A stretch of DNA of 62,753 bases, filler included, from an uncultured Methanosarcinales archaeon (lineage in GTDB: Archaea > Nanobdellota > Nanobdellia > Woesearchaeales > CAZXZL01): the NCBI GenBank assembly GCA_964645415.1. It is 4 parts of 4 records of this genome, joined end to end, with 100 filler letters (N's around TTAATTAATTAA, not from the genome) between each part and the next. Parts side by side here need not be neighbours in the genome. Positions count along the whole stretch, not along the records: positions 32,781 to 48,290 come from CAZXZL010000023.1; 3 more parts are not named here. One strand, 5' to 3'. Position 1 is the stretch's first letter; each line of letters starts with the position of its first letter. Under the pieces are notes generated by a model that did no database searches, had not been told where the DNA came from, and was given only the letters and a program-made list of their open reading frames with translations. Shown here in pieces: positions 897-57,885 of this stretch. The translations under genes were made by a program, and so were the position numbers.

Positions 897-948
897 TTAC
901 ATAACTTTATATAGTGTTTTCAAGGTTTTATCTTAATTGGGATTATTA

Positions 949-18005: not shown

Positions 18006-19115
18006 TTAATTAAATAACTTTGAAAAAAATCCTCTGTTGTTTAAGTTTTCATCTAATTCTTTAATTAATTCTTTTTCTTTTTTATTTACTTTCTTTGGAA
18101 TTTTAACTTTCACTTTCAAATATAAGTCTCCTCTTCTATTAGACTTCATGATAGGCATACCTAAGTTTTTAAGCCTTAATTTATTATTAGGTTGAATCCC
18201 TTTAGGAATTTCAACATCAATCTTTTTATCAAAATGTTTAAGTTTAAATTCACAACCTAAAATAGCTTTTGTAAAAGGTATTTCTATTTCTCTTAAAAGA
18301 TCATTGTTTTTCCTTTCATAATCAGAATTCTTATTAATATTTACTTTAATGTATAAGTTTCCTTTATGATCGGTCATATTCCCCATACCATTAAGTCTAA
18401 TTGTATCTCCGTCTCTAATTCCTTTTGGTATATCAATAGTAATATTCTCTTTTTTAGTTACTCTACCTTTTCCTTTACAAGTAGAACATTTATTTTTTAT
18501 TATCTTTCCTGAACCATTACATCTATCACAAACTCCGGTTCTTTTCATCATTCCAAAAGGAGTTCTTGATGTTTGTGTGATTCTTCCACTTCCATTACAT
18601 TTAGGACAAGTATTCATATCACTTCTATTTTCTGCACCTGTTCCTTTACAATCATCACATAATGTTTTTCTAGTATAATTAACTTCTTTAGAATTTCCAA
18701 AGTAAGAGTCTTTTAAATCAATATTTAGTCTTATTCTTAAATCGCTTCTACTTCTTCTTTTATTTTGGTGAAAATTACCTCTTCTTCTTTGATTAAAGAA
18801 ATCATCAAAGAAATCTCCTCCAAACAAATCATCAAAAACATCTCCAAAACCACCAAAGTTATTAAAATTAAATCCCTGACCGCTACCATCCGGGTCATAT
18901 TCATAACCAGCTCTTTTTGCTTGGTCGTATTCTTTTCTCTTTTTTTCATCTCCTAATACAGAAAAAGCTTCATTAATCTCTTTGAACTTATCTTCACTAT
19001 CTTCACTTTTATTTCTATCAGGATGATATTTTTTAGCAAGCTCTTTATATGCTTTTTTAATTTCTTTTTTCGTAGCGTCTTCTGAAACTCCAAGTATATC
19101 ATAATAATCTTTCAT
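18006..19115 (-). CDS. dnaJ: Chaperone DnaJ
   Basis: J domain with HPD, G/F-rich region and four CxxCxGxG repeats. Confidence 0.97.
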
Positions 19116-19186
19116 CTTTAGAAAAAACACCTTCTTTTTAATAAATCTGTTGAATTTAAATTGATAAATATATAAATAATTTATGA

Positions 19187-19252
19187 TGTTGATTTAAGGT
19201 CAACAATAAAAACTTTTATAAAACCCTTTTTCTTTCGTTGATATGGAGTCAA
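19187..19252. promoter_or_regulatory. Two TTGA-N7-TCAA inverted repeats flanking a TATA box in the dnaJ/grpE divergent region
   Basis: TGTTGA-TTTAAGG-TCAACA (19187-19205) and TTGA-TATGGAG-TCAA (19238-19252), with TTTTATAAA at about 19214. Confidence 0.4.
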
Positions 19253-19253
19253 A

Positions 19254-19895
19254 ATGAATGATAAAAAAAACAGTGAAAATAAGGATTCCTATGAAGATAT
19301 GTCTAGAGATGATTTAATTCAGGAGATAGAGGAATTAAATAAAAAAATCTCTGAAAAAGATTCTAAGATAGATAATTTAAAAGAGAAATTTGATGAAAAA
19401 GAAGAAGAGCTTGATCAGACTATTGATCTATCAAAAAGAATCAAGGCAGATTTTGAAAATTATAAAAAAAGAATGAAAAAAAATCGAAAGAAACTAAGAG
19501 ATAATTTATTAAATGGATTAATCTCAGATATTATTCCTGTTTTAGATAATATTGATTTATCTCTTAATCATTCAAGTTCCAACTTAGAAGATTTTAAAGA
19601 AGGAGTTGAGATGATTTGTGATCAATTAAAAAACTCTTTAGAAAATCATGGTCTTAAAAAACTGAACGTTAAACCAGGAGATGAATACGATCCAAAAATT
19701 CATGAAGCAATACAAATGATTGATAGTGATGATTCAAGTGATGATAAAAAGATTGCTGAAGTTTTGGCTCAAACATATCAGTTAAATGATGATGTTATAA
19801 GACCTGCAAAAGTAAAAGTTTATAAATATAAATCTAAAGAAGATAAAGAATCTAATGAAAAAGAAAATAATTCTAATAACTCAGATAAAAATTGA
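19254..19895 (+). CDS. grpE: Nucleotide exchange factor GrpE
   Basis: ADFENYKKR, YDPKIHEAI and VIRPAKVKV motifs. Lies upstream of dnaK. Confidence 0.95.
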   Translation: MNDKKNSENKDSYEDMSRDDLIQEIEELNKKISEKDSKIDNLKEKFDEKEEELDQTIDLSKRIKADFENYKKRMKKNRKKLRDNLLNGLISDIIPVLDNIDLSLNHSSSNLEDFKEGVEMICDQLKNSLENHGLKKLNVKPGDEYDPKIHEAIQMIDSDDSSDDKKIAEVLAQTYQLNDDVIRPAKVKVYKYKSKEDKESNEKENNSNNSDKN

Positions 19896-19928
19896 TTTTA
19901 TTTTTACAATTAAAAAAAGGTGGTTTTT

Positions 19929-21866
19929 ATGTCAAAGAAAGAAAATAAAAAAAATGAAGGAAATAAAAAAACAAAGAAGAAAAAAGTACTTGGTATTGAC
20001 TTAGGTACTACTAACTCTTGTATGGCTATTATGGAAGCTGGTGAAGCAGATGTTGTTCCAAACTCTGAAGGTTCTAGAACAACACCTTCTGTTGTAACTA
20101 TAAAAGAGGATGATGTGACTGTTGGGGAGCATGCAAAGAGACAATATATTACTGACCCACAACATACTGTTAGAAGTATTAAAAGACATATGGGTGAAGA
20201 TTATAAAGTAGACATTGAAAACAATGAATATACTCCTCAAGAAGTTTCAGCTTATATTCTTCAAAAAATGAAAAAAGATGCTGAAGAATATATCGGTGAG
20301 AAAATTGAAGATGCTGTAATTACAGTGCCTGCTTATTTTACTGATTCTCAAAGGCAAGCAACAAAAGATGCTGGAAAGATTGCTGGACTTAATGTTCTTA
20401 GAATTATTAATGAACCTACAGCAGCTGCTTTAGCTTATGGTTTAAATAAACAAGATAAAGAACATAATATTTTAGTATATGATTTTGGTGGAGGTACTTT
20501 TGATGTATCTATTCTTGAAGTTGGAGATGGTGTTATTGAAGTAAAAGCAACAAGTGGTGATAATCATCTTGGTGGTGATGATATTGATGAGGCTTTAATT
20601 GACCATTTTGTTGATTCTTTCAAAGAAGAACATGGTGTTGATTTAAGGTCTGAAAAAGATGCTATTCAAAGACTGAAAGAAGCTGCTGAAAAAGCAAAAA
20701 TTGAATTATCTTCAAAGAAATCAACAGAAGTTAGTATTCCATATATTTATTCAGATAATTCAGGTCCAAAGCATCTTAAGATGACTTTATCAAGAGCAAA
20801 ACTTGAAGAGTTGATGGAACCTATCATTGAAAAAACAATTAAACCTACTAAACAAGCATTGAAAGATGCTGAAATGAGTTCCAGTGACATTGAGAAGATT
20901 ATTTTAATTGGTGGATCAACAAGAATTCCATTAGTTAGAAAAAAATTAAATGATATCTTTAATAAAAATCCAGACAGACATGTAAATCCTGATGAAGCAG
21001 TAGCTATTGGTGCTGCACTTCAAGGAGGGGTTTTAGCTGGTGAAGCAAAAGATATCTTACTTTTAGATGTTACTCCATTGTCTTTAGGTATTGAAACATT
21101 AGGTGGTGTTTTTACTAAATTAATTGAAAAAAACACAACAATCCCTGTAAAAAAATCAAAAACATTTACTACTGCAGAAGACAATCAAAATGCAGTAACT
21201 ATTAGGGTTTATCAGGGAGAAAGACCAATGGCAAAAGATAATCATTTCCTTGGTCAGTTTGATTTAGTGGGAATCCCTCCAGCTCCGAAAGGTACTCCTC
21301 AAGTAGAAGTAACTTTTGATATTGATTCAAATGGTATTTTGAATGTAAGTGCAAAAGATAAAGGAACTGGAAAAGAACAGAAAATTGTAATTTCAGAAAC
21401 AGCTAATCTATCTGAAGATGAAATTGAAGAGATGAAAGAGCAAGCAGAAAAGTTTGAAGAAGAAGATAAGAAGAAAAAAGAAAGAGCAGAAAAAATTAAT
21501 CAAGCACACTCTCTTGTAAACTCTGTTGATAAAACTAAAGAACAATTAGGAGATAAAGTTGATGAATCTAAATTTGAAGAAGTTGATGAGATTAAAGAAG
21601 AATTAGAGGAATTAATTAAAAAAGGAGAGAAAGGTTATGATCAATTAAGTGATGATGATGTAGAGAAAATTGAGAAGAAAAAAGATAAACTTTCTGAAAA
21701 ACTTCAAGAGATTAGTAAAGAACTTTATCAACAAGCACAAGGTGCTCAAGGACAACCTGGTCCTGGTGGAGTAAACCCTGGTGCAAACCAAAAGAAAGAA
21801 TCTAGTGATGATGATGAAGATGTTGTAGAAGGAAATTACAAAGAAAATGAAGATGGTAAAAATTAA
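19929..21866 (+). CDS. dnaK: Chaperone DnaK (Hsp70)
   Basis: [32 protein letters not shown] and [11 protein letters not shown] motifs. Confidence 0.98.
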
Positions 21867-21902
21867 ACCATCTTTTTTTATTTTTTATTTTAGGTGATTA
21901 AA

Positions 21903-23525
21903 ATGAATCGTAATATGCAACCTATTTTTATACTGCCTGATGATTCTAAGAGAGATTCTGGAAAGAACGCTCAGAAAAATAATATTGCTGCATCAAAAGC
22001 TGTTTCAGATGCAATAAAAAGTACTCTTGGACCAAAAGGAATGGACAAAATGTTAGTTGACTCACTTGGTGAGGTTACAGTTACAAATGATGGTGCTGCT
22101 ATTTTAGAGGAAGTAGAAATCTCTCATCCTGCAGCAAAAATGATTGTTGAGATTTCAAAAACACAAGAATCAGAAGTTGGTGATGGAACTACTTCTGCTG
22201 TTGTTTTAGCTGGTGAATTATTAAAGAATGCTGAAAATTTATTAGATAAAAACATACATCCTACATTAATTATAAAAGGTTATCAGATGGCTAATCAAAA
22301 AGCTATAGAAGTCTTAAATGATTTATCTATTGATGTTGATGTAGACGATAGAGATACATTGAAAAAAATCTCCATGACTGCTATGACTGGAAAGGGTGCC
22401 GAATCATCTAAAGAATTTTTATCCGATATTTTAGTTGATGCAATTAATATTGCAACTGAAGATAATAAATTTGATCAAGAAAATATCAAAATCGAAAAAA
22501 TGTCTGGTAGTGATGTTGATGATAGCGAATTAATAAAAGGAATTCTTCTTGATAAAAGTAGAGTACATAGTGATATGGATAAAAAAATAGATGATGCTAA
22601 TATTCTTCTTTTAACATCACCTATTGAAGTAAAAAATACTGAGATTGATGCAAACATTCAGATTAATGATCCTTCCCAAATACAAGGATTTATTGATCAA
22701 GAAGATAAGATACTAAAGCAAAAAGTAAAGAAAATTAAAGAGCTTGGTGCAAATGTTGTTTTCTGTCAAAAAGGAATTGATGATGCTGCTCAATCTTACT
22801 TAGCAAAGAATGGAATCTTTGCAATAAGAAGAGTTAAGAAAAAAGATATGTCACGATTAGCAAGAGCAACTGGTGCAAAATTAATCTCTGGTTTAGAAGA
22901 TGCTTCAAAATCTGATTTAGGTAATGCTGGATTAGTTGAAGAAAAAATTATTGGTAATGAAGAAATGACTGTTGTAAGTAATTCTTCAGAAACTAATACT
23001 GCAACCATCTTATTAAGAGGTGGAAGTGATCATATTGTTACAGAAATTAAAAGAGCATTTGAAGATGCGATTGGTGATATTAAGTGTGTAATAGAAAGTG
23101 GAAAAGTTTTACCTGGTGCAGGTGCGATTGAAGTTGAGTTATATCAAAAACTTAAAGATTTTGCATCTAAACATTCTGGAAGGATTCAACTTGCACTAGA
23201 AGCATTTGCTGAATCTATGTTAGTTATTCCTAAAGCATTATCTGAAAATGCTGGTCTTGATCCTATAGATGTAATCACTCATCTTAATAAAGAACATGAC
23301 TCAGGAAATAAACATTCTGGAGTTAACATAGATACAGGAAAATCTGTTGATTCTGTTAAAGAAGGAATTATTGAACCATTTAATTTAAAAGTTCATGCAC
23401 TAAATTCAGCAAGAGAAGTTGCTGTAATGATTCTTAGGATTGATGATGTTATTTCTTCATCTCCTAAAAATGATAAAACACCACAAAATCAACAGATGCC
23501 ACAAAATTTACCTAACTTAGGTTAA
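21903..23525 (+). CDS. ths: Thermosome subunit (group II chaperonin)
   Basis: [28 protein letters not shown] and ILRIDDVI motifs. Confidence 0.97.
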
Positions 23526-25292: not shown

Positions 25293-26450
25293 TTAAATCA
25301 TCCTCTCTAAGCTATCCTTTCCAAAATAACAAGGTTCTAAACAATTAACATCTGGAAAAGTACATTTTGGACCATTATTATATTTCTTTAATTCATCATG
25401 TATCTTTTGATAATTTCCTTCTGTTTGTTTAAGATATTTTTCAAGTGTATTCTTTGTTTGATTCATAATCTCTAATTGTGCATGTCCACATAATCTTTCA
25501 GTTGCTTTTGATAAGAAATCTTCATAAGTTCCTCTCTCTTTTACTTTTACTAAAGTTGCTTGTGGAAAATTCATTGCAACTTTCTCTAAATCACTTAACC
25601 ACTCTTTTTCTTCAGATTTACCTCTGATTATTTTTGGGACATAGAATTCTTTTGGTTCTTTTATGGATTCCATCTCATAATTAATTGTTCTATGTCTATG
25701 AGCTTGTGCTAATCCTGCAAAAGAAATTTTGTAATTTGTAGAATATATGTCACCAAAAAATTCTTTATCATTTAATTTATCTTTAAATAAACTTAGTGAT
25801 CTCTTTTTTTGGTCTGGATTTAAATTTTCTTCATATAAATTATCCAATTGATTATTGAATTGTAACATACTTTCTTTTAGTTTCTGATTAAAAATAGTAT
25901 TTTTTTCTTTATTAACAAAATCATTAAACCAATGCATAATATAATTTAACTGTCTGAAATTAGTTGTATATTCCATTTTTGCAGGAGTAAATACTGATGT
26001 TAAATATCTTGCATTCTCCATTGCTAACTTTTCAGTTTTTTTATCTGTTAAATCAGGATATTTATCTTCAATATTTTCATAAAATTTTGATTTCCACTTT
26101 TGATATAAACTCTCTTCTCTTTTGCTTAAATCCTTCATTTTTGTATATCTTGCTGACTTTTCAGAAGTCGTATATACTTTTTCATTATTTAATACCATAG
26201 CCAACATCTTTGGTATATTCTTTATATATAAGTTATAAGTTGGATGTCCATAAACACTATGATGTCCGCTATTTAACGTCCTTTTGATTCTATTATTTGT
26301 TTTCTCTTCACTTTCATTCTTTATTTTATCAAAAGAATCACTCATATAACAGATTGCTGCAGCATGAGAACCATGATTTAATGCTTCATCTTTTTTCATT
26401 TCATATCCTTCTTTTGTTGACCCCAATAATTCAATTTCTAAATTTTCCAT
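25293..26450 (-). CDS. thyX: FAD-dependent thymidylate synthase, tandem two-domain form
   Basis: SGHHSVYGH, SEKSARY, ENARY and TNFRQL in the N-half. QAHRHRT and ERLCGHAQLEI in the C-half. Confidence 0.85.
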   Translation of the reverse strand: MENLEIELLGSTKEGYEMKKDEALNHGSHAAAICYMSDSFDKIKNESEEKTNNRIKRTLNSGHHSVYGHPTYNLYIKNIPKMLAMVLNNEKVYTTSEKSARYTKMKDLSKREESLYQKWKSKFYENIEDKYPDLTDKKTEKLAMENARYLTSVFTPAKMEYTTNFRQLNYIMHWFNDFVNKEKNTIFNQKLKESMLQFNNQLDNLYEENLNPDQKKRSLSLFKDKLNDKEFFGDIYSTNYKISFAGLAQAHRHRTINYEMESIKEPKEFYVPKIIRGKSEEKEWLSDLEKVAMNFPQATLVKVKERGTYEDFLSKATERLCGHAQLEIMNQTKNTLEKYLKQTEGNYQKIHDELKKYNNGPKCTFPDVNCLEPCYFGKDSLERMI

Positions 26451-26559
26451 TTTAACCCCATATATTAGTAGTATATTTTATTACTAATAGATAGTATTTA
26501 TTTTTTATTAACTTATTTTTATGAATTAATTTTTTAAAGTATATTATTTTATTGTTATT

Positions 26560-26790
26560 ATGCTAAAAAAAATTCATTTTGTTGTTCAATGTCCAGATTG
26601 TGAAAGAATTTTCGTACATAAAAAAAATAATTACTTTAATTGTAGATTTTGTAAAAAAAGGATTAAAATGTTTAAACCAAAAGCACAAGTTAAAATATTC
26701 TTTAAAGGTTCTCAGAAACAATGTAGACAATATATTAAAAATATGAATCCAAACCCAGAATTTAAAAAATATAAATACAAAGACAAATAA
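26560..26790 (+). CDS. Small zinc-ribbon protein (DUF1922-like)
   Basis: CPDC...CRFC motifs in a basic protein. Confidence 0.6.
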   Translation: MLKKIHFVVQCPDCERIFVHKKNNYFNCRFCKKRIKMFKPKAQVKIFFKGSQKQCRQYIKNMNPNPEFKKYKYKDK

Positions 26791-26860
26791 TTATTGTAAT
26801 TACTGTCGAGTAAATAATAAATAGAAATCTTTATAAAATAGTATTACTCTTCAGTAACAC

Positions 26861-27142
26861 ATGATAAAAGATTATTTATTTGTTGGATTTGGATTATTAT
26901 TAATTTCAACTTTTTTAAGTTTTTATACACTTGCAGAAGGTGTTACTGAAACTACAATTACTCACTCTACTCAGTATGCTACAGCAGTTGATTGTGGATT
27001 TCAAGGTATTCCTATTGAGAATTGTATGAACCAATCTACAGAAGAACTTGAAGAAGATATGGATGATTCTTTGGATGAATACTTAAAATTACTAAATGAA
27101 ACTAAAGAAGAATTATCAAATGAGATAGAATCACTTTCTTAA
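26861..27142 (+). CDS. Small secreted or membrane-anchored acidic protein
   Basis: N-terminal hydrophobic signal, a Cys pair and an acidic helix. Confidence 0.6.
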   Translation: MIKDYLFVGFGLLLISTFLSFYTLAEGVTETTITHSTQYATAVDCGFQGIPIENCMNQSTEELEEDMDDSLDEYLKLLNETKEELSNEIESLS

Positions 27143-27382
27143 TTTCTTTATCAGTATTACATTTCCTCTTTCTTCAACTACTTTAACTTTTAATTTTTCT
27201 TCAATAAATTTTATAGCATCTTTTTTATTTTGTGTATGTACAAAAGACTTTAGAAATTTTATTTTTAAAAAATTTTTATTTTTCATTTGTCTTTTAATTT
27301 CTTCTAAAATTTCTAATGTAATTCCATTTTTACCTATTCTAAGTGATACTCCTAATTTATTCATTTTTTTTCCTTTTTTCAT
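27131..27382 (-). CDS. yhbY: YhbY/CRM-domain RNA-binding protein
   Basis: LRIGKNGIT, LKIKFL and RGNVIL motifs. Confidence 0.85.
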   Translation of the reverse strand: MKKGKKMNKLGVSLRIGKNGITLEILEEIKRQMKNKNFLKIKFLKSFVHTQNKKDAIKFIEEKLKVKVVEERGNVILIKKLRK

Positions 27383-27397
27383 ATTTATCACTACTTT

Positions 27398-28540
27398 TTA
27401 AATAATATAACAATCTTTTTCAAAATCTAGATTACCATCATGACTTACTCTTTGACATAAATCTCTTATTGAATCTTCGTTATAGTTATCTACAACTTTA
27501 TTCCATTTAAAATCTGGTGATGGGTCCCATTTACCAGTCCCCTCACATCCAAATGTATCAAACTCCCATGCATAGTAATTATCTTCAACTTCAAAATGTC
27601 CAATAACAAATGGTTCTTTAATAAAATTAGGTTTTCTTTTCTCAATTTCTTTTTTTAAGTAATCTACTATTTTTTTTACACTTTCATACTGCTCATCAGT
27701 ATATTCTTCTGTTTCTCCATCATTAACTATTTCTATTCCGATTGTTTCTTGGTTTGCACCACACGCATGATGGGTTCCTTTATTTAAATCAACGTGTTTA
27801 GTAACTCTTCCATCTTTATCGATTAAAAAGTGAGCTCCTACATTATATTCATTACTTGAAAATACTCCATGTGCACCTTCCCAACTTGAACCACCTGTAT
27901 GATGAAGAATTATTCTTCTTGGTCCTTCAAAGCTTCTTCTTATTGGATAATTTGAGTCCATCATAAGTTCTAGATCGATTTCACTTGATAAATCTTCATA
28001 AAATGATTCAGATAAATCATTTAATTCTTCAGGACCTGTTCTTGTTGGATCTTCTGGAGGGACATATGATCCTTCAGGTCTATCCTCATCAACACCTATT
28101 GTGATAGGGTCTATACTTTCACTTTGTGAGCTATAATCATACTCATATCCTGGTAATGGATTATTATCATAATAAAGTTCACAAATTCTGTTTCCTTCAT
28201 CAATTGTAATAGTTGTAACTGATTCTGAAGTTGTCCTTCGAGAATTAATCCTTTTTAATTCCTCTTCTTCCACATTTGAATCAACAACATAACCGCCTTT
28301 TTTCTTATCTATTATTCTATTTACTGCCATTTTCTCAAGAACTTCTCTACATGTCCTGATACTATATACATCTTCAAGATGTTCTAATCTATTAATTGCT
28401 GTTGGTATTTCTCCTGCTGTGAATCTAACAAATAAATTACTTATATTTCCTCTCCAAAAACCCATATAAACAAATAGAACTAAGACCATTAATATTATGA
28501 ATACAATTACTCTTTGTGCTTCAAGCTGAGATTTTTTCAT
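27398..28540 (-). CDS. Pilin-like (class III signal) protein with C-terminal N-acetylmuramoyl-L-alanine amidase (Amidase_2/AmpD family)
   Basis: MKKSQ plus hydrophobic helix. IILHHT, AHFLIDKDG, HHAC, NQETIGIE, YTDEQY, IGHFEV and KWDPSP give all three Zn ligands and the catalytic Glu. Confidence 0.88.
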   Translation of the reverse strand: MKKSQLEAQRVIVFIILMVLVLFVYMGFWRGNISNLFVRFTAGEIPTAINRLEHLEDVYSIRTCREVLEKMAVNRIIDKKKGGYVVDSNVEEEELKRINSRRTTSESVTTITIDEGNRICELYYDNNPLPGYEYDYSSQSESIDPITIGVDEDRPEGSYVPPEDPTRTGPEELNDLSESFYEDLSSEIDLELMMDSNYPIRRSFEGPRRIILHHTGGSSWEGAHGVFSSNEYNVGAHFLIDKDGRVTKHVDLNKGTHHACGANQETIGIEIVNDGETEEYTDEQYESVKKIVDYLKKEIEKRKPNFIKEPFVIGHFEVEDNYYAWEFDTFGCEGTGKWDPSPDFKWNKVVDNYNEDSIRDLCQRVSHDGNLDFEKDCYII

Positions 28541-28675
28541 TTTTATTTAATCTACTTTTCTTTCCTTTAAATATTTTAGTAATAAAAAGTATAGTTTTAT
28601 ACAATATAATTAAGATATATATAATAAATTACAAAGTTATTTTTATATTAAATTTTCTATATTAAGTATAATGAA

Positions 28676-28723
28676 ACACAATATGTTGTGGTTTTTTTTA
28701 TTAATTAACACAATATATTGTGT
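28676..28723. promoter_or_regulatory. Tandem NrdR boxes
   Basis: ACACAATATGTTGTGG (28676-28691) and the perfect palindrome ACACAATATATTGTGT (28708-28723), 32 bp apart and directly upstream of nrdR-nrdJ. Both match the acaCwAtATaTwGtg consensus. Confidence 0.9.
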
Positions 28724-28741
28724 TGGAGTTGTCACTATAAA

Positions 28742-29200
28742 ATGAAATGTCCTTTTTGTTATTCTGAAAAAACACGTGTTATTGATAAGCGTGAGAAAAA
28801 TGAAGATAGGGTTGTTAGAAGAAGAAGGGAATGTCAAAGTTGTGAAAAAAGGTTTACAACTTATGAAAGAATTGAAAATCCTTCATTAATTGTAGTGAAG
28901 AAAAATGGATCTAAAGAAAATTTCAATAGAGAAAAATTAATGTCTGGAATTATTAAGTCTTGTGAAAAACGTGATATTTCTAAAAATGAAATTAGAAAGG
29001 TAGTAAATGAGATACAAAGTGATTTAATTAAAAATTTTCAAAATGAAGTTTCAAGTGAAGAAATTGGAAAAATAGTTACATCAAAATTAAAAAAATTAGA
29101 TAGTGTTGCTTATATGAGATTTGCATCTGTCTATAAGAATTTTGATGATGTTGATTCTTTTAAAAAAGAATTAGATTTATTAGAAGAAAAAAAGGTATAG
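28742..29200 (+). CDS. nrdR: Transcriptional repressor NrdR
   Basis: MKCPFC, VRRRRECQSCEKRFTTYE, ATP-cone and VAYMRFASVY. True start is 28742. Confidence 0.96.
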   Translation: MKCPFCYSEKTRVIDKREKNEDRVVRRRRECQSCEKRFTTYERIENPSLIVVKKNGSKENFNREKLMSGIIKSCEKRDISKNEIRKVVNEIQSDLIKNFQNEVSSEEIGKIVTSKLKKLDSVAYMRFASVYKNFDDVDSFKKELDLLEEKKV

Positions 29201-29210
29201 GTGTTTTTTA

Positions 29211-32006
29211 ATGATATATGAAAAAATTAAGTCAAAACTGGAAGAAAAGTTTGATTTATCTCTTTTTAATAATACTGAAGTTTTGAAAAGAGATGATACA
29301 AAATCTTTTTTCGATGTTGAAAGAGTTTATAATTCAATTTATAAGGCCATGATGGCAAAACAAACTTATGATGAGGATAAGCTTTACAAAGTAATGATTG
29401 ATGTTTTAGAAACATCAAAAGAGATTATTAAAGAAAAAAATTTACCTTCTGTTGAAGATATTCAAGATGTAATAGAAGTTTCTTTAATGAAAAATGGCCT
29501 TTTTGAAACTGCAAAAGCTTATATATTATACAGAGAGGAGAAATTTAAAGTAAGGGAAAAGAAAAAAGAAGTATTGAATAAAGAAAAATTAGATGATGTT
29601 GATAAGAATTTCAGTCTTAATTCTCTTCGTGTTTTAGAATCAAGATATCTTAAAAAAGATAATGATGGAAATATTATTGAATCTCCAAAAGGAATGTTTA
29701 AAAGAGTTGCAATAAATGGTGCTCTTTCTGAGATTGTTTATGATGATAGAATTTTTAATAGAAAAAATTTAGATAAAAATTTTGTTTTTGAATATAATGA
29801 AAAAGAAGAAGGTCATATTTATGATGATGAGGAAGATAGTTATGGTGTTGACAAAGAGACTTTAGAACTTGTCAAATCTTATCTTCCATTTCTCCATAAT
29901 TTTGATGAGTATCATAATGTTTTTTCTATTGGAAAGTATCATCTTAATAAATATCATTTTGAAAGGTTAATTTATGGAATCATTTATGAAGTTTTGAATG
30001 GAAGAATTGAAATTGAGGCAAAAGAATTTATCGAGATGCTTAAAGATTCCAAATTTGATAAACATGAATCTTTTATTAATGACATGTATGATGGAATGGT
30101 TAATCAACGTTTTATGCCTAATACTCCTTCTTTAGTGAATTCTGGTAGAAGGTTGGGTATGCTTTCTGCTTGTTTTACTATGGATATGGAAGATAATATG
30201 GAAAGTATTATGAGAGCAGCTTATGATGTTGCTTTAGTCCAAAAAACAGGTGGTGGAACTGGTATTAATTTTTCAAAACTTCGACCTAAAGATGATTTAG
30301 TTGGCTCTACAAAAGGAGTATCTTCAGGACCTCTATCATTTATGAAAATAATTGATTCTGTTTCTGATGTAATTAAACAAGGTGGTGTTAGAAGAGGAGC
30401 TAACATGGGAATTTTAGATGTCTGGCATCCTAATATTAATGATTTCATAAGATGTAAAGAAGAAGAAGGTAAGTTTGAGAATTTTAACATTTCTGTTGGT
30501 TTATGGGAAGACTTCTGGGAATCTTTTTACAATAAAGAGGGTTATAGTTTAGTTAACAAAAGAATTGATAAAAAAGTTAGAGAAATTGACCCTGAAGAGT
30601 TAATTGAAAGATTATCTTATTATGCTTGGTTAAAAGCAGATCCAGGAGTTTTATTTTTTGATAATATCAATAAGAGAAATGTTTTAATTGAAGCTAAGGG
30701 AGGAAAAATTAACACAACAAATCCTTGTGGTGAAGAGCCTTTATATGTTTATGAATCCTGTAATTTAACTAGTCTCAATATTAAGAAGTATGTTAAAGGA
30801 AAAGAATTTGACTGGGACAGTTTTCATAAAGATGTAAAAACTGTAGCTCATTATTTAGATAATGCAATTTCAATTAATAAATATCCTATTAAAAAGATTG
30901 AACACCATACTAAATTAACTAGAAGAATTGGTTTAGGAATTATGGGATTAGCAAATGCTCTTTTTGAAATGGATATTAAATATAATTCTGAAGAGGGATT
31001 TAATTTCATGAGAAAAATAATGGAACATTTAACTTATTTCTCTTATGAAAAATCTGCTGAATTATCAAAAGAAAGAGGATACTTCCCATTATATAAGGAT
31101 TCTGATTTTAAAGATGGTGATTTACCTGTTGAAGGTTTTTATGATTCAAGTGAATGGACTTTAAATTGGAATGATTTAATGAAAAAAATCAAAGAGAATG
31201 GAGTAAGAAATGCGATGGTAACAACTATGCCTCCTACAGGAAGTACTAGTATGATTTCTGATACTTCTTCTGGAATTGAGCCTACATTTGCACTTGCTTA
31301 TGAAAAAAGAGTAACTGTTGGTGAATTTGTATATGCAAATGATGTATTAGAAAAGAAACTTAAGAAAAGAGGTATCTTTTCAAATAAGTTACTTAAAAAA
31401 ATAGCAAAAAATGGAGGTTCTCTTCAAGGAATTGATGAAATCCCTGAGGATTTAAAAGACATTTTTGTTACATCAATGGATATGCATTGGTTAGATCATG
31501 TTGTTGCACAATCTGAAATGCAAAAATGGGTTACTGATAGTATTAGTAAAACAATTAATATGCCTAGTAATGTTGAGTCAGAGGATGTTATGTATTCATA
31601 TCTGATTGCTCATGAATTAGGTTGTAAAGGAGTTACTGTGTATAGAGATGGATCAAAAGCAAATCAAGTGCTAAATGCTGAGAATGATGAGGAAGAAAGA
31701 GAAATCCTTTCACCTTCTGATTATTCTGTAAGTGTTTTAAAAAATAAAATGGAGAGTTTTCCTAAATTTGGAAGAATTATTGATATGAAAAGGATTCTTA
31801 AAAGTAATGATAGTAATCTTGAATTGTTTTTGAATGAAAAAGATGATGATGAGGATAATCATTCAGAAAATGAAGAAGAAGAAGAGTCAACTTCTCACTC
31901 TCCTTCAAATGATTCAGAATGTCCTTCATGTGGTTCTGATGTAGCAATGGAAAGTGGTTGTAAAACGTGTTATTCGTGTGGATGGAGTGCTTGTGGGAGT
32001 TCTTAA
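29211..32006 (+). CDS. nrdJ: Class II (adenosylcobalamin-dependent) ribonucleotide reductase with ATP-cone
   Basis: FMPNTPSL, LSACF, RRGANMG, TNPCGEEPL..SCNL, PPTGSTS and YRDGS motifs, C-terminal CPSC..CYSCGWSAC. No beta-subunit gene adjacent. Confidence 0.92.
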   Translation: MIYEKIKSKLEEKFDLSLFNNTEVLKRDDTKSFFDVERVYNSIYKAMMAKQTYDEDKLYKVMIDVLETSKEIIKEKNLPSVEDIQDVIEVSLMKNGLFETAKAYILYREEKFKVREKKKEVLNKEKLDDVDKNFSLNSLRVLESRYLKKDNDGNIIESPKGMFKRVAINGALSEIVYDDRIFNRKNLDKNFVFEYNEKEEGHIYDDEEDSYGVDKETLELVKSYLPFLHNFDEYHNVFSIGKYHLNKYHFERLIYGIIYEVLNGRIEIEAKEFIEMLKDSKFDKHESFINDMYDGMVNQRFMPNTPSLVNSGRRLGMLSACFTMDMEDNMESIMRAAYDVALVQKTGGGTGINFSKLRPKDDLVGSTKGVSSGPLSFMKIIDSVSDVIKQGGVRRGANMGILDVWHPNINDFIRCKEEEGKFENFNISVGLWEDFWESFYNKEGYSLVNKRIDKKVREIDPEELIERLSYYAWLKADPGVLFFDNINKRNVLIEAKGGKINTTNPCGEEPLYVYESCNLTSLNIKKYVKGKEFDWDSFHKDVKTVAHYLDNAISINKYPIKKIEHHTKLTRRIGLGIMGLANALFEMDIKYNSEEGFNFMRKIMEHLTYFSYEKSAELSKERGYFPLYKDSDFKDGDLPVEGFYDSSEWTLNWNDLMKKIKENGVRNAMVTTMPPTGSTSMISDTSSGIEPTFALAYEKRVTVGEFVYANDVLEKKLKKRGIFSNKLLKKIAKNGGSLQGIDEIPEDLKDIFVTSMDMHWLDHVVAQSEMQKWVTDSISKTINMPSNVESEDVMYSYLIAHELGCKGVTVYRDGSKANQVLNAENDEEEREILSPSDYSVSVLKNKMESFPKFGRIIDMKRILKSNDSNLELFLNEKDDDEDNHSENEEEEESTSHSPSNDSECPSCGSDVAMESGCKTCYSCGWSACGSS

Positions 32007-32019
32007 CTCAACCTTTATC

Positions 32020-32680
32020 AAGCTTGACCAGGATAGTACTATACTCCGTATAGCACAGTATTACTATAGTATTCAATTTATTCCTGTTTTTGTTTTTATA
32101 AACTTTTTTTTCTTTTTTTAGAGGATTTGATCTCAATTTTTATCAAAATTGGTAAGGATAGTACTATACTTCGTATAGCACAGTGGTTCCTATAGTATTC
32201 TATTCAATTTTATTTTTGTTTTTATAATATCCTATTTTTTTATTTGGATGATTTTGATTTCTACACTCTTTAGCTTTTTATTTTCTACACTCTTTAGCAC
32301 TTTATCTTCTTCACTTTTCTAAGTTCAAAAAGCTTCGCTTTTTGTAACTTACGAAAATAGGTCTTTTCTAAGTTCAAAAAGCTTCGCTTTTTGTAACTTA
32401 CAAAAGTAGTCTACGTTTTACCTAATGAATATGTCTTCGCTTTTTTTCTAAAGAAATAGTAGGGCAAAATCATCTAAGTAAAAGTAACTTTAAAAATGAA
32501 ATAAAAAGAAATAGAATATTAAGGGAACTTACGTGCCATACAACGTATGGTACCATCCTGATCAAATTACTAAACTAAAGTTTAGAACTTGTTAAATTAC
32601 AAATTTAAAAGTGTGATAAAATTTGAGGGCAAAATCATCTAAGTAAAAGTAACTTAAAAGAATGAAATAAAAAGGAATAG
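32020..32680. repeat. Composite non-coding repeat array (hairpin copies at 32031, 32156, 32533; 39-bp internal duplication at 32314 and 32363)
   Basis: Direct inspection. Inverted homology to 17170-17695. Confidence 0.9.
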
Positions 32681-32780
32681 NNNNNNNNNNNNNNNNNNNN
32701 NNNNNNNNNNNNNNNNNNNNNNNNTTAATTAATTAANNNNNNNNNNNNNNNNNNNNNNNNNNNNNNNNNNNNNNNNNNNN
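32681..32780. other. Artificial contig linker
   Basis: N44-TTAATTAATTAA-N44. Confidence 0.97.
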
Positions 32781-33090
32781 ATTGACCAGGATGGTACCAT
32801 TCTAAAGAATGGCACGGTAGTTTCTATAGTATTCTATTTCTTTTTATTTCATTCTTTAATTTTTTTGTGATTTAGAAATCTTTTTTCATCTTCGATGTGT
32901 GTAGGGCAAATTCATCTAAATATAAGAAAATAATATATTATAAAATTGAAATAGAAACAAGTAAATTAAATCATAGAAATTTTTGTACTATACGAAGTAT
33001 AGTACTATCCTTACCAATTTTGATAAAAATTGGGGAAAATTCATCTAAATATAAAAGAATAATATATTATAAAATTGAAATAAGAAAAAA
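32781..33090. repeat. Composite non-coding repeat (hairpins 32789-32815 + and 32985-33010 -; roughly 45-bp direct duplication at about 32908 and 33037)
   Basis: 32789-32815 is identical to 17271-17297. AAATTCATCTAAATATAA..AATAATATATTATAAAATTGAAATA occurs twice. Confidence 0.88.
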
Positions 33091-33115
33091 TAAAGGAACT
33101 ATGTTTTCATATTAT

Positions 33116-35518
33116 TTATGTCAAAGCATTTAACACAAACGTGTCATAATCATTAGAACTAATATAACGATCATAATTAATTGATCCACAATTATGCTCG
33201 TTTAATTCCTCAATAAATAAACTTTGCATTCCATGTGGTGATAAAAACTCTTGACCAAAGTAAGATTTTATCTCACTAAATGATTCTTTTTGATCAGTTG
33301 TGATAAAATTAGATGTTTCATAAAATGGTTCTGAACCAGATTCTGCTTCTGTTTCAACTAATACTCCTATAGAACTACTACTTGCTGCACAAGAATGATA
33401 CGTTCCTTCATCAATATTTGAAAATAACTCTACTCGACCATCTCTATGAACTCCAATATCAATACCTAAATCATTATCTCTTAAAAAATCATGAGCTTGA
33501 TTTAAACTAGAACTTCCTGTAATATAAACAACAATATAATCAACATCAATCTCATCAAATACTTCATAATAACCAACACTATCAACAATATCTATTCCTG
33601 ACCCCTCAAGATAAGTAATAAAATGATCAGTTGTTTCAGAGTTGTCATGGTTTGTTTCAGTTGAACCAAAAATATTTGATTGAGTCATAAAAAGATCATC
33701 TACTGAAGGAGCATCAAAATATAAATCATCTACTTCAAAACCAAAATAATCTTTAATCTCATTAAGTGTTCTTTCTTGATTAGTTGTAATATCATCACCA
33801 TCAGAATCTAAAAATAAAATTGCAATATCAGAATCACTACCATCTTGATGAGCTGTTCCTTCACCAATATTTACATAAATATAGACATCACCTGAACTAT
33901 CAATCATCATATGAACTCCTTGATTATCAGAATCTAGGTTAGCTGCTGCTTGAGAAGATGAAGTTGTTTCAGAATAATATGTAGTTATGTCATTATGAGA
34001 ATCAACAGAACCTAAACTACTCAAGTCACCAACCCTATTGTAAACATCTAAGGAATCAGAGTCTCTAAAATGATTAATAAATTCTTCAGTCTCATCATTA
34101 ACCTCATCATGATATATCTCAATACCACCCTCATCTATACAATCTTGAACTTCAGGATTTTCACGTAATTCTAAAGTAGTACTTTCTTCAGATTTATATA
34201 AGTAATCAGCTGAAACAATAAAATAATCCATTGAAATATCATCATCAAGCTCCTCCATTTCATATTCACAATTAAATGTTACAAAATCACGAATATCATC
34301 ATAAACAGCTTCTAGATATATATTATCTGACACATCTAATAAAAAACTATTACCTTCTTTAGATATTTCATCATCAGAAACAAAGTCACAACTAATACTT
34401 TCTACCCAACTTGGAGCAATAATTGAAATTGTTTTTAATTCTTTTAAAACACCATCCCAATTATTTCTAATTGTAAAACCAAATGGATAGATGTCTTGTT
34501 GAGAAACATAATCAATAACTGGATGATTACCTAATTCTAAACCAATTGTTAAAGGAGAATCAGAAGCAATTGAATTTGGAACAGAAGGGATTCCAGGGAT
34601 ATTTCCATCTTCATCTCTTCTTGAAATATAATAATCTTCAGAAACAAAGTAAGCTTCTAAAGTAGCATGTGATTCAAATTCAAACCTTGATGTCAATGAT
34701 AATTCATAATCACCATGTTCATCATAAATTGAAAAAATCATTCTTAATGGAGATGAAAGCCCATCTCTTAATTGAACATTATAAGGGTCTACTCTACAAT
34801 CACCTTCCTCAACATTACACTCAAAAGTAGAATTTATTCCTTCATCAGTAATTGTTCTAACGTCAGCTTCAGCTCTTAAAGTATTATTTCTACAAGTAAA
34901 AAATAATGATCCTTCATCAAGAATATTCATAAAAAGTCCTGTTCTATCTCCACCTCCATCTACATCAGAGATATATTCACCATGAATTGCATAATGCATT
35001 TGGTTTTCAAACCAAGAATAAATACCATCATAAATTGAAAAAATTCCTTCAAAAACAAACTGTGCCGAATTGGAGATAGTCATAAAAGGAAGTCTTAAAA
35101 TATATTGAGCAGGATTCATCCCTTCATCTCTTGCTGCTTGTGTTGCTCTTCTGACACCAGTAGATAATACAAAAAAACCTATAACTGCAATAATAGACAA
35201 TGCAATTGCCCAAGGTAAAGCTTTTTGATACAATTTTAGTAAAGGATTAAAAAGAAAATACAATACTTTTGAAACAGGATTTAAAATTTTTGCAAGAATA
35301 ACTATTGCCTCTTTAAATGGAAAAGCCATCCATTCTTTCAGTGTACGCTCTCTTCGATATTGATTTCTTCTAAGCTTTTCTTTTTCTTTTTTTTCTTTCT
35401 CTAACTCTTTACGAGTTTTTTTTATTTCTTCTTGTGTATTTTTTTGTTCACTCTCAAAATCATTAAAGTGTTTTCCTACTTCTTTTTTAATATCTCTTCT
35501 AAGTTTGTCTTCATTCAT
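33116..35518 (-). CDS. Membrane-anchored acidic surface protein with two C-terminal degenerate Amidase_2-like domains
   Basis: Cytoplasmic coiled coil, TM helix and a large ectodomain. GVHMMIDSSGDV..GTAH..IAILF and YIVVYITGSSS..DGRV..GTYHSC..SIGVLV align with the active amidase at 27398-28540. Confidence 0.75.
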   Translation of the reverse strand: MNEDKLRRDIKKEVGKHFNDFESEQKNTQEEIKKTRKELEKEKKEKEKLRRNQYRRERTLKEWMAFPFKEAIVILAKILNPVSKVLYFLFNPLLKLYQKALPWAIALSIIAVIGFFVLSTGVRRATQAARDEGMNPAQYILRLPFMTISNSAQFVFEGIFSIYDGIYSWFENQMHYAIHGEYISDVDGGGDRTGLFMNILDEGSLFFTCRNNTLRAEADVRTITDEGINSTFECNVEEGDCRVDPYNVQLRDGLSSPLRMIFSIYDEHGDYELSLTSRFEFESHATLEAYFVSEDYYISRRDEDGNIPGIPSVPNSIASDSPLTIGLELGNHPVIDYVSQQDIYPFGFTIRNNWDGVLKELKTISIIAPSWVESISCDFVSDDEISKEGNSFLLDVSDNIYLEAVYDDIRDFVTFNCEYEMEELDDDISMDYFIVSADYLYKSEESTTLELRENPEVQDCIDEGGIEIYHDEVNDETEEFINHFRDSDSLDVYNRVGDLSSLGSVDSHNDITTYYSETTSSSQAAANLDSDNQGVHMMIDSSGDVYIYVNIGEGTAHQDGSDSDIAILFLDSDGDDITTNQERTLNEIKDYFGFEVDDLYFDAPSVDDLFMTQSNIFGSTETNHDNSETTDHFITYLEGSGIDIVDSVGYYEVFDEIDVDYIVVYITGSSSLNQAHDFLRDNDLGIDIGVHRDGRVELFSNIDEGTYHSCAASSSSIGVLVETEAESGSEPFYETSNFITTDQKESFSEIKSYFGQEFLSPHGMQSLFIEELNEHNCGSINYDRYISSNDYDTFVLNALT

Positions 35519-35524
35519 TTTTTA

Positions 35525-36673
35525 TCAAGGAGAATAAACTTTCAATCTAATTACATCCATTTCTATATATGGGTGTATTTCAATAAAATTTGTACCTTTA
35601 GAAACAATAGAAGTAATGTTTCTTTCCCAAAAATCATTATATGTATCTAAGTGTCTTTTAGCACCATTAATAGAAACATCAGCAACTTTTTCATCTGTTG
35701 AAGGTGCAAACTCAATATTAAGAAAAATATCATTTTCAATATCTTCTGAAGAAAGACTAAAAAGATGCTGTTTTATCTCAGTCTCATTTAGTTTATTTTC
35801 AATATACATATCAGTTAAATATAAATCACCAGTTGATTCCATGATTACTTCGTTTTTTCCCCTCCTTAAATCGTCAACAGGAACATCCAACCTATTTCTA
35901 CCATCACAAACAGGATAAGCATCATAAATATTATTATCATTAACTTCAACATTTAAGTTACCCTCTGAAATACAGTCAACATGAAAATGAAATCTCGAAG
36001 ACTCAATATAGTTAATTTCATCACCCTCTATACTGAAACTTGATTTATATTGAGATTGTTCTTTATCAAGAAATCTACCAAATAATTTTATATTCTTTAA
36101 ATCAGCATTATTACTTTCAAAAATATTCCAACCAACATCATCAACAGAAATTTCAATAAGATTAGTCCCTTTTCTAAACATATAATCATCAACGTTAATT
36201 CTAAATAAACCTCTACTAACTTCACCTCTATGTAATGTATAATTATTAAAAAAAATATTTAACTTAACATCTTGATCAACTTCAAAAGATAATTCTAATT
36301 GTTCATAATCTTTTTCTAAAGAAAACGAATATCTTGCAAATCGATTTTCAAATAAATTATTTACTATACTTTCACCACTTATAGAAAATATCGTTTCAAG
36401 AGATGTTCTAGTTCTAATTCTAGAAGACGGTAAAGAATGTCTTTGATAAGGTTCACTAATTGGTTTAAGGTTTCCAATATTTTCATCTAAAAAAACAGAC
36501 TCATTAACAGAATCAGGAGTATCCTCTTCTATTGTTTGATTTGAACCAAGAAGTTTTATTCTCTCTGAAGGAGGTATTGCTAAAATGTATGATAATATCA
36601 ATCCTGCTAAAATAAATACAATAATTGCTGAATGTCTTGCCAAAAAGGAGGCATTTTTATTTTTTCTTATCAT
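35525..36673 (-). CDS. Membrane-anchored or pilin-like beta-rich surface protein
   Basis: Basic N-terminus plus TM helix, and three repeats ending in xGxNxIEI. Confidence 0.7.
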   Translation of the reverse strand: MIRKNKNASFLARHSAIIVFILAGLILSYILAIPPSERIKLLGSNQTIEEDTPDSVNESVFLDENIGNLKPISEPYQRHSLPSSRIRTRTSLETIFSISGESIVNNLFENRFARYSFSLEKDYEQLELSFEVDQDVKLNIFFNNYTLHRGEVSRGLFRINVDDYMFRKGTNLIEISVDDVGWNIFESNNADLKNIKLFGRFLDKEQSQYKSSFSIEGDEINYIESSRFHFHVDCISEGNLNVEVNDNNIYDAYPVCDGRNRLDVPVDDLRRGKNEVIMESTGDLYLTDMYIENKLNETEIKQHLFSLSSEDIENDIFLNIEFAPSTDEKVADVSINGAKRHLDTYNDFWERNITSIVSKGTNFIEIHPYIEMDVIRLKVYSP

Positions 36674-53112: not shown

Positions 53113-53223
53113 TGGTGTTAAAAATGAAAAACTTAGTAAAAATAATAAAAATCACGTATCTCACTTTTTTTGGTATTTTTAATAACGATATTGATAAGTT
53201 AATCTTTTTAAAAGGTGATTTTT

Positions 53224-55263: not shown

Positions 55264-55286
55264 TAGATTTTAATTATGTTATTAGT

Positions 55287-56015
55287 ATGAAATTTTTCTC
55301 TTTAAAATGGGGTTTGTATATTTTAATGTTCATTTCAATATTTATTTTTATATCAAATTCTTCTTATTCTGCTCAAGTAATTGAAAGTTATGATATAGAT
55401 GTTGAGGTAATAAACCCTTCTACTTTTAATATTACAAAACAACTTAATATAAGAAACCTTGCAGATTCCGGATTAATCCCAGGAGAGATTATTTTTGATA
55501 TCTCTGAAGATAATAAACTTAGTTCTTTTTATTCTTATGATGATATAGGTAATGAATTAGAGGTAAATTTTGATAATATCCGAAATAGGATTATTGTTAA
55601 TAACTATATTCCTATTCCAAGTGGTTTTAGTCGTGAAGTAACCTTAGAGTATGATATGGAGATAGAAAACTCAGGAATTTTCTTTTATGAAATAATGTAT
55701 CCTGTATCAAAATCTGCAATCTCAGTAGATGAAGTTAATTTTTACTTTCATTCTGATAATTACCATTTTTCTCATGTACCGGGGGGTGAAGTAATTGAGA
55801 GAGATGGTAATAACTATGTTCATTTAAATTTTGATTTTGTGCCAGAGGAGCCAATTCATGTTGAGTTTTCTAGAATTCCTTTAGCACTTCTACCATTCTC
55901 GGGGGTTTATCTATTTTGGATACCACTAATTTTACTACCACTGATTTTCTCTCTGATACTATTTATGTATCGGAAGAAAAAAGATAAAGAAAAGTTTGAT
56001 CATTTAAAATGGTAA
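55287..56015 (+). CDS. Secreted, C-terminally anchored membrane protein
   Basis: Signal peptide, beta-rich domain, C-terminal TM helix and basic tail. Confidence 0.7.
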   Translation: MKFFSLKWGLYILMFISIFIFISNSSYSAQVIESYDIDVEVINPSTFNITKQLNIRNLADSGLIPGEIIFDISEDNKLSSFYSYDDIGNELEVNFDNIRNRIIVNNYIPIPSGFSREVTLEYDMEIENSGIFFYEIMYPVSKSAISVDEVNFYFHSDNYHFSHVPGGEVIERDGNNYVHLNFDFVPEEPIHVEFSRIPLALLPFSGVYLFWIPLILLPLIFSLILFMYRKKKDKEKFDHLKW

Positions 56016-57883: not shown

Positions 57884-57885
57884 TT

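Follow-up and report, generated by a model that had tools for sequence, protein, structure and literature searches.

Two disabled amidase domains at the tip of a membrane-anchored scaffold protein in a Woesearchaeota-type archaeon

Introduction

Zinc amidases of the AmpDh2/AmiD type (Amidase_2) share their fold with the peptidoglycan recognition proteins (PGRPs) of animals, of which PGRP-LC, -LE and -SA and the non-binding PGRP-LF, -LCa and -LA are non-catalytic and have lost zinc ligands. Peptidoglycan-binding non-catalytic PGRPs keep the groove, whereas PGRP-LF, -LCa and -LA, having lost it, bind no peptidoglycan and instead act on partner proteins (PMC3724876; PMC8124813); PGRP-LF is membrane-anchored and has two PGRP domains (PMC3724876), a tyrosine (Y78 of PGRP-LB) is invariant even in non-catalytic members (PMC8124813), and sugar-orienting residues of AmpD, including Asn35 and Lys162, have been named (PMC5036320). 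The present work concerns P800, an 800-residue membrane-anchored protein encoded in a 62,753-nucleotide window (the whole stretch of DNA that was analysed) of an uncultured archaeal genome, whose C-terminal tip consists of two disabled amidase domains, d1 (proximal) and d2 (distal), together with the surface apparatus of which it appears to be a part.

Wall hydrolases in these archaea have already been published: reports describe large GH23 murein transglycosylases of Woesearchaeota and Pacearchaeota (fam00969, module 98; PMC8204110), the GH23 of 'vampiristic' Woesearchaeota (PMC9723730), and modular archaeal peptidoglycan hydrolases shaped by domain shuffling, prominent in Nanoarchaeota (PMC12352652). 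The GH23 proteins resemble the system treated here in being surface-exposed and peptidoglycan-active, in belonging to the same archaea, and in having been proposed to bind and degrade bacterial walls. As described there, however, fam00969 comprises 1947 residues, a signal peptide and one transmembrane helix, whereas P800 has 800 residues, an N-terminal coil followed by the membrane helix, and no SLT domain; set apart by this description, fam00969 is probably not the present scaffold, whose members span 500-1400 residues. The accessible parts of the GH23 accounts name no amidase tips, exchangeable slot or dead domains, and the hydrolase survey, by its definition, required a catalytic and a known wall-binding domain, which places scaffold fusions and pseudoenzymes outside it (PMC12352652). 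The available portion of a Nanobdella surface study lists proteins rich in immunoglobulin (Ig) domains, none of them matchable to this operon (10.1101/2023.10.27.564410). No description of the operon, the swap slot, scaffold-fused amidases or archaeal pseudo-amidases was found in the open-licence literature; the scaffold might be included, among unannotated families, in a table of PMC8204110. What is new here is the scaffold operon, the tip swap slot and the recurrence of disabled tips.

Set beside the zinc amidases, the intact enzyme of this genome (A380) has the full His/His/Asp plus Glu set, whereas neither d1 nor d2 has the first His, the Glu or the Asp, the C-terminal loop is absent from d1 as well, and both sit on an archaeal membrane scaffold. 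They differ from animal PGRPs in having arisen independently, from an archaeal Glu-type amidase, and in lacking the invariant Tyr and most groove residues, which brings them closer to the non-binding LF and LA than to the receptors; they would work like non-catalytic amidase-fold modules but do not belong to the PGRP family. A further parallel is offered by the degenerate LytM proteins EnvC, NlpD and ActS, activators of bacterial amidases in which a dead wall-hydrolase domain has taken on another function alongside active hydrolases; this scaffold, too, has dead M23 tips in some homologs, although the LytM fold differs from that of d1 and d2.

A conserved scaffold operon with an exchangeable tip

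The operon from c1 through the scaffold gene to its lipoprotein-like genes, together with an exchangeable wall-hydrolase tip, is a larger finding than d1 and d2 themselves. At E≤0.001, the scaffold profile matched 202 of 251 phylum genomes (~80%; the 251 include G325 and G326, flagged as unpublished and used in this count only), mostly in single copy. Of 20 loci from other genomes, 19 had c1 as the immediate upstream neighbour of the scaffold gene, and all 20 had 1-4 lipoprotein-like c2 genes downstream of it; nearby genes that we take, from our own recognition of the names, to be RFC small-subunit-like and pelota-like occurred at 18 and 15 of them, respectively. Six bases separate the c1 stop codon from the P800 start, and the c2 genes of the source genome (C41:846-2806 and C57:1889-3602) are split from the scaffold gene, the operon having probably been interrupted, in the assembly or in the genome, by a dispersed repeat described below. 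The scaffold (c0) and c2 may be distant paralogs, as is hinted by a weak match of the c2 profile to one scaffold ectodomain (E 1e-5).

The ectodomain was modelled by AlphaFold2 with a predicted local distance difference test (pLDDT) score of 92 and a predicted template modelling (pTM) score of 0.86, as two Ig-like sandwiches, and it carries three invariant cysteines (C234, C377 and C417). Its best structural match is a generic Ig domain (Z 10.9, 97/296 residues), and a Foldseek search with the scaffold gave low-scoring Ig-like matches only (TM≤0.25). Matches to HAP2/Fusexin domain III and to macroglobulin domains (Z 9-10.5, ~97 residues) were likewise set aside as generic Ig and are not taken to indicate a fusogen. 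P800, c1 and c2 received no NCBIfam name, and P800 no Pfam name over the cut-off.

Beyond the ectodomain the proteins vary, which bears out the variable C-terminal cargo that an earlier note on this DNA had proposed looking for among homologs. Counting enzymes over the Pfam cut-off in three partly overlapping sample sets, wall-hydrolase tips were found in 6 of 24 genomes, the least biased sample (SLT 2, and M23, Amidase_2, glucosaminidase and M15), in 12 of 100 database homologs (SLT 7, Amidase_2 2, and M23, glucosaminidase and NlpC/P60), and in 13 of the 29 tails scanned from 38 loci chosen for long open reading frames (ORFs) (SLT 9, M23 2, and 3D and NlpC/P60), nine loci with tails <60 residues being left unscanned. 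Including the muramidase that accompanies an amidase on the tip of L067, eight peptidoglycan-hydrolase families are represented: SLT, M23, M15, Amidase_2, glucosaminidase, NlpC/P60, 3D and muramidase. No other enzyme family passed the cut-off on the scanned tips, and the remainder are PKD, FN3-like, Cys-rich or unnamed. In other orders of the class, the 22 listed matches have frames of 389-529 residues, a length that suggests bare scaffolds. Intact amidases are present on the scaffolds L008, L066, L067, P0030 and P0032; they fall outside the d1/d2 clade, and amidases must therefore have reached the tip more than once.

Some tips hold two domains in series, namely a muramidase with an intact amidase (L067:1375-4734) and, by eye, a lysozyme-like domain with an intact amidase (L066:7853-11224), an eroded lysozyme-like domain with M23 (L081:1097-3052), and an NlpC/P60 domain without visible catalytic Cys with an SLT-like domain that has its Glu (L078:2409-3413). 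The last two, each pairing an apparently dead with an intact domain, look like bind-and-cut fusions in one chain.

A possible parasitism of bacteria by Woesearchaeota has so far rested on scattered transglycosylase genes, and to our knowledge all known cultured relatives of these archaea live on other archaea. Eight hydrolase families fused at one tip constitute repeated, independent evidence that the structure meets bacterial walls, and they name concrete proteins. The earlier proposal of a cell that targets such walls is supported.

Fold and lost residues of d1 and d2

Both domains have the Amidase_2 (PF01510), T7-lysozyme-like alpha/beta fold. Against A380, d1 and d2 scored 40.0 and 48.9 bits in BLASTP and E 8e-5 and 6e-8 in genome-wide tblastn; against each other, they scored 50.1 bits (25% identity over 149 residues). 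The Pfam Amidase_2 model stayed under its cut-off on P800 (19.3 of 26 bits) and passed it by far on A380. Structure searches of the ESM Atlas gave TM-scores of 0.67-0.70 for d2, with Amidase_2 in 9/9 rows, and of 0.62-0.74 for d1, with 6/6 rows in Amidase_2 clusters, of which only 2 met the naming bar; the d1 search returned no usable feature match, and a single-sequence AlphaFold2 model of d1-d2 (pLDDT 32) was not used. Fold, residue losses and matches to A380 thus agree with the earlier view of two dead amidase paralogs at the tip of a membrane-anchored protein.

The first zinc ligand, His213 of A380, is Tyr665 in d2 and Tyr514 in d1, while the catalytic Glu270 is Leu720 in d2 and, in d1, either Phe569 (ungapped) or Leu568 (shifted register). 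The two distal replacements first reported, His to Tyr and Glu to Leu, are accordingly correct, yet the real damage is greater: K-W-D-P of A380 reads R-Y-I-S in d2, where Asp339 has become Ile786, and d1 lacks any GH...KxDP segment, that is, the C-terminal groove loop. In d2, moreover, the His after the zinc His is Ile666 and the His of GAH is Asp687, with Thr667, His708, His762 and the Cys710/Cys777 pair retained. A single His remains as a zinc ligand in d2 (762; 774 in an alternative alignment) and none in d1. A Glu-to-Leu change common to both domains was rejected as register-dependent, leaving His to Tyr as the only firm shared change. Because three or more catalytic positions are lost in each, d1 and d2 would be unable to cut peptidoglycan.

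By alignment mapping only, the groove of d2 retains Thr667, His708 and His762, with Arg784 in place of Lys, and lacks equivalents of His214, His237, Asn263, Asp339 and Pro340; d1 is without the loop. The Tyr used by T7/PGRP-type enzymes is Ile686 in d2 and Val535 in d1, the parent enzyme A380 already having Ala there. In AmpD numbering, the Asn35 position would be Ile and the Lys162 position Arg in d2.

These residues bear directly on the initial suggestion of a PGRP-like receptor, in which the old groove of d1 and d2 would recognise muropeptides specifically and a signal would cross the membrane to the cytoplasmic coil. Its structural premise holds, since fold and zinc-ligand loss are those of non-catalytic PGRPs; d2 keeps the three groove residues and the basic Arg784, and Asp683 would occupy, in AmpD numbering, the Arg/Asp position that governs stem specificity (PMC5036320). 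An intact groove is not supported by the alignment: peptidoglycan-binding PGRPs retain the groove and the invariant Tyr (PMC8124813; PMC3724876), whereas d2 has Ile686 there; the second His of HHT, the GAH His, the Asn that precedes SIGIE and the DP pair within KxDP are all replaced in d2, and d1 has no loop at all. Coupling of binding to the cell interior through the coil, also proposed earlier, is weakened by the presence of the same N-terminus in the tip-less orthologs P0002 and P0003, and two rigid Ig domains stand between tip and membrane. A high-specificity PGRP-type receptor is very unlikely to be what d1 and d2 form, and no sign of signalling was seen.

Origin from a pilin-like amidase

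A380 has a complete zinc and catalytic set (His213, Glu270, His315 and Asp339), and nothing else in the genome matches Amidase_2 at E≤1. It is predicted to be pilin-like from its N-terminus, MKKS/Q followed by a hydrophobic stretch, a class III-like signal under our own pattern, which 20 ORFs fit; the genome encodes a prepilin peptidase (Peptidase_A24). Among 1.84 billion representatives, 103 proteins matched P800 at E≤0.001, and, P800 itself aside, the only match in the tail was P0024, the A380 ortholog (E 8e-10). In a 26-row tree built without PGRP rows, d1 and d2 are sisters (99/97) within the A380/P0024/P0115 clade (100/100). As to the closest enzyme, BLAST scores favour P0115 over the genome's own enzyme (65.9 vs 48.9 bits, at different settings), and the approximately unbiased (AU) test did not reject an own-enzyme clade (p 0.23). 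Within the limits of long branches, d1 and d2 can be said to descend from the lineage's pilin-like amidase (the 27398 family), a paralogy that had been anticipated, with disabling and tandem duplication following. The shared His-to-Tyr change implies that inactivation preceded duplication, at a present overall identity of 25%. The family profile matched AmpDh2 (E 1e-28) and AmiD (2e-26) best among solved structures, with PGRPs at 2e-14 at best, and a PDB sequence search with P0024 gave no match; d1 and d2 do not appear to descend from animal PGRPs.

The closest scaffold orthologs, P0002 and P0003 (43-45% identity), end directly after the ectodomain. As the accessions of P0002 and P0115 are 296 apart, the sister genome probably holds both the pilin amidase and a bare scaffold. 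In the present assembly, the A380 and P800 genes lie, as previously remarked, on different contigs (C22 and C23). Nevertheless, of the proteins with a counterpart in the collection, 2/3 from C22 and 3/3 from C23 have 51,338 bp as their longest listed contig (against 15,520 for the remaining C22 protein, 92,482 for one from C21 and 63,713 for two from C24), so that, on this indirect evidence, the two genes are probably linked within 51 kb in another assembly without being neighbours. That C22 and C23 share a repeat where their ends face each other does not show that they adjoin, the repeat being found at many contig ends; no exact end overlap between C23 and any contig of the genome was detected, and no contig extended past C23 except into the repeat.

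This probable linkage is among the points that would suit a docking or regulatory role, in which d1 and d2 would have given up peptidoglycan binding and would serve as a dock for the intact pilin amidase or some other surface protein, placing it or holding it in check, by analogy with fly PGRP-LF and PGRP-LCa. The architecture is that of PGRP-LF (PMC3724876), and the former catalytic positions are now bulky and hydrophobic (Tyr, Ile, Leu, Ile). The genes are, however, neither adjacent nor co-transcribed, and the sister assembly appears to pair the pilin amidase with a tip-less scaffold (accessions MFW6025230 and MFW6024934), so that the enzyme needs no such dock; we regard this role as improbable.

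Disabled domains elsewhere and intact hydrolases of the genome

The arrangement is less singular than was first thought: this order has further dead amidases, as well as dead hydrolases of other kinds. The M23 tips of L005 and P0027 lack their His motifs and the SLT tips of P0077 and L088 their Glu, as judged by motifs that were verified on intact sequences aligned alongside; a PDB sequence search with P0027 gave no match. Of 401 genomes of the same order, 58 have Amidase_2 over the cut-off, in many cases on a pilin-like protein; disabled versions are present in L044, L142 and five genomes of the genus g205. In the latter (L133-L137, from G473, G378, G294, G496 and G446), the proteins are large and pilin-like, with Amidase_2 eroded to differing degrees; intact relatives are L118, L128, L129, L121 and L122.

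Besides A380, the source genome encodes three SLT proteins with the catalytic Glu motif (C55:372-1601, C17:9564-11546 and C5:17881-19020), one of them with a C-terminal LysM, as well as a membrane protein with intact M23 (C79:399-1490), although the contig of this gene, 1.5 kb long, may have been binned with the genome in error. M15_4 and PG_binding_1 gave no match in this fragmented assembly.

A possible role for the disabled domains

The reading that we favour, tentatively and at somewhat under even confidence, is that d1 and d2 serve as non-catalytic contact modules, remodelled in the groove and carried on a stalk that faces the wall. P800 would contribute the membrane subunit to a surface apparatus conserved among Woesearchaeota-type archaea (c1, scaffold and one to four lipoprotein-like genes), its Ig-like stalk ending in an exchangeable tip that most likely faces the bacterial cell wall, because in many relatives the tip is a peptidoglycan hydrolase. 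In this lineage an amidase domain copied from the pilin-like enzyme was grafted onto the tip, lost its zinc site and was then duplicated in tandem, as sequence and tree show within the limits of long branches; d1 and d2 would now lengthen the stalk and keep it in place at the bacterial envelope, their remodelled surface binding weakly and multivalently, d2 more than d1, with cutting left to the intact amidase and the three SLT proteins. The anatomy and origin of the two domains are well supported; every statement on their ligand we infer.

Retention of the domains is favoured because the frame is intact, duplication followed death, and the core pattern lies above background: hydrophobic core columns are kept at 18/24 in d1 and 20/28 in d2, against a background of 36-39%. 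Given tip-less orthologs at 43-45% identity, truncation by a premature stop codon would probably do little harm; the 330-residue tail has nevertheless stayed intact while d1 and d2 diverged to 25%.

Several observations weigh against such contact modules. A tail <60 residues in 49 of 96 homologs means that the apparatus works without any tip. Lysine and arginine make up 3% of d1/d2 against 11% of the enzyme domain, a drop unfavourable for an anionic ligand, and most of the groove residues that AmpD/PGRP complexes reveal have given way to others. Core retention falls below that of the intact enzyme (27/28) and is only modestly above a rough neutral expectation that allows for residual identity (p 0.01 and 0.05), and the d1/d2 branches are very long (1.7-1.8 plus a shared 1.97, vs 0.67 for the enzyme). 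The g205 dead amidases diverge like their flanks (26-42% vs 30-46%), which, as a proxy, argues against a tightly conserved receptor pocket; in three intact relatives, the amidase stands at 48-51% vs 23-37% for the flanks. Finally, no ortholog with d1/d2 was found in the representatives, among metagenome contigs scanned for near relatives of P800 (587 pattern matches, 0 confirmed) or in a word-based search with the 330-residue tail (0/1722 candidates at E≤0.1), so that selection on the tail cannot be measured.

Much of this would also be expected if the tail were a ligand-free relic or spacer, an active amidase tip made redundant by the pilin enzyme whose domains are now folded acidic spacers or eroding, at one stage of a cycle of gain, decay and loss. 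Long branches, the loss of groove and basic residues, the truncation of d1 and the tip-less closest orthologs fit this account, as do the g205 amidases, with replacements that differ from genome to genome and flank-like divergence, and the M23- and lysozyme-like tips that by eye appear eroded elsewhere. A useless domain, however, does not need the duplication that followed inactivation (the shared Tyr), the Cys pair and fold are kept in an intact 330-residue frame, and the dead g205 domain persists in five genomes at 30-46% flank identity; we consider the relic possible, though rather unlikely.

Should contact modules with wall affinity be the correct reading, d1 and d2 would represent a convergent PGRP-like adhesin and a probe for the host; should they not bind, the decay phase of a weapon-swapping cycle would be documented. 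A broader proposal, speculative and on balance doubtful, is that the c1-scaffold-lipoprotein operon is a core host-contact machine of Nanoarchaeota-type archaea, that Woesearchaeales tips have been repeatedly reloaded with wall hydrolases and repeatedly turned into non-cutting wall adhesins, of which d1/d2 would be an independently evolved prokaryotic PGRP-like case, and that tip type predicts the bacterial host of each uncultured lineage.

Genomic setting

The source genome comprises 961 kb in 79 contigs, and the window joins contigs C21-C24, in size order, with artificial linkers between them (features in Table 1). Candidatus Woesearchaeota is the source of the nearest named proteins, the sequencing runs with matching sequence are soda-lake metagenomes, and no RNA dataset occurs among the runs listed as containing the sequence.

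Table 1. Positions in the window of P800, its parts and related features.
Feature	Position	Strand	Evidence or property
P800, membrane-anchored scaffold protein ('c0' of the conserved operon) with two C-terminal pseudo-amidase domains (ORF of 800 aa)	33116..35518	-	
Predicted coiled coil, basic/charged N-terminus, aa 1-60; probably cytoplasmic (positive-inside rule)	35339..35518	-	35% K+R, net +6
Membrane region of two hydrophobic segments, the first weaker (aa 62-80), the second a clear transmembrane helix (aa ~98-120)	35159..35335	-	Hydropathy peaks 1.8 and 2.5
Conserved ectodomain, aa ~178-452, two Ig-like beta-sandwiches, conserved Cys	34163..34987	-	AlphaFold2 and structural match
d1, proximal pseudo-amidase, aa ~477-612	33683..34090	-	
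d2, distal pseudo-amidase, aa ~629-800	33119..33634	-	
c1, upstream operon partner, 382 aa, N-terminal membrane anchor	35525..36673	-	HMM E 4e-71
A380, 380-aa pilin-like protein (predicted), intact Amidase_2 domain; source family of d1/d2	27398..28540	-	Pfam E 5e-24
Dispersed-repeat copies either side of the artificial contig linker 32681-32780, beyond the P800 stop	32007..33100		

So far as contigs allow a judgement, assembly error does not account for the P800 gene: in X1 and X2, Logan contigs span it with 0 differences inside the gene, and in X3 they cover part of it, with one synonymous change. The three runs belong to one study, and the source sample may be among them. The dispersed repeat consists of ~125-bp units in both orientations, with 53 core copies genome-wide, of which 31 lie ≤400 bp from a contig end, and 0 in 3 shuffles; it bounds C23 at both ends and breaks the assembly. 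In appearance it resembles a miniature inverted-repeat transposable element (MITE) or a repetitive extragenic palindrome (REP).

Elsewhere in the window, genes at 18006-23525 and 25293-32006 appear from their sequence to include bacterial-type DnaJ/GrpE/DnaK beside a thermosome subunit and, around A380, ThyX-like, NrdR-like and class II ribonucleotide reductase genes. Positions 937-9713 and 51022-62673 hold runs of very large acidic surface proteins, among them a protein that starts with a class III-like signal (7404) and a tandem pair of paralogs (51022 and 53215).

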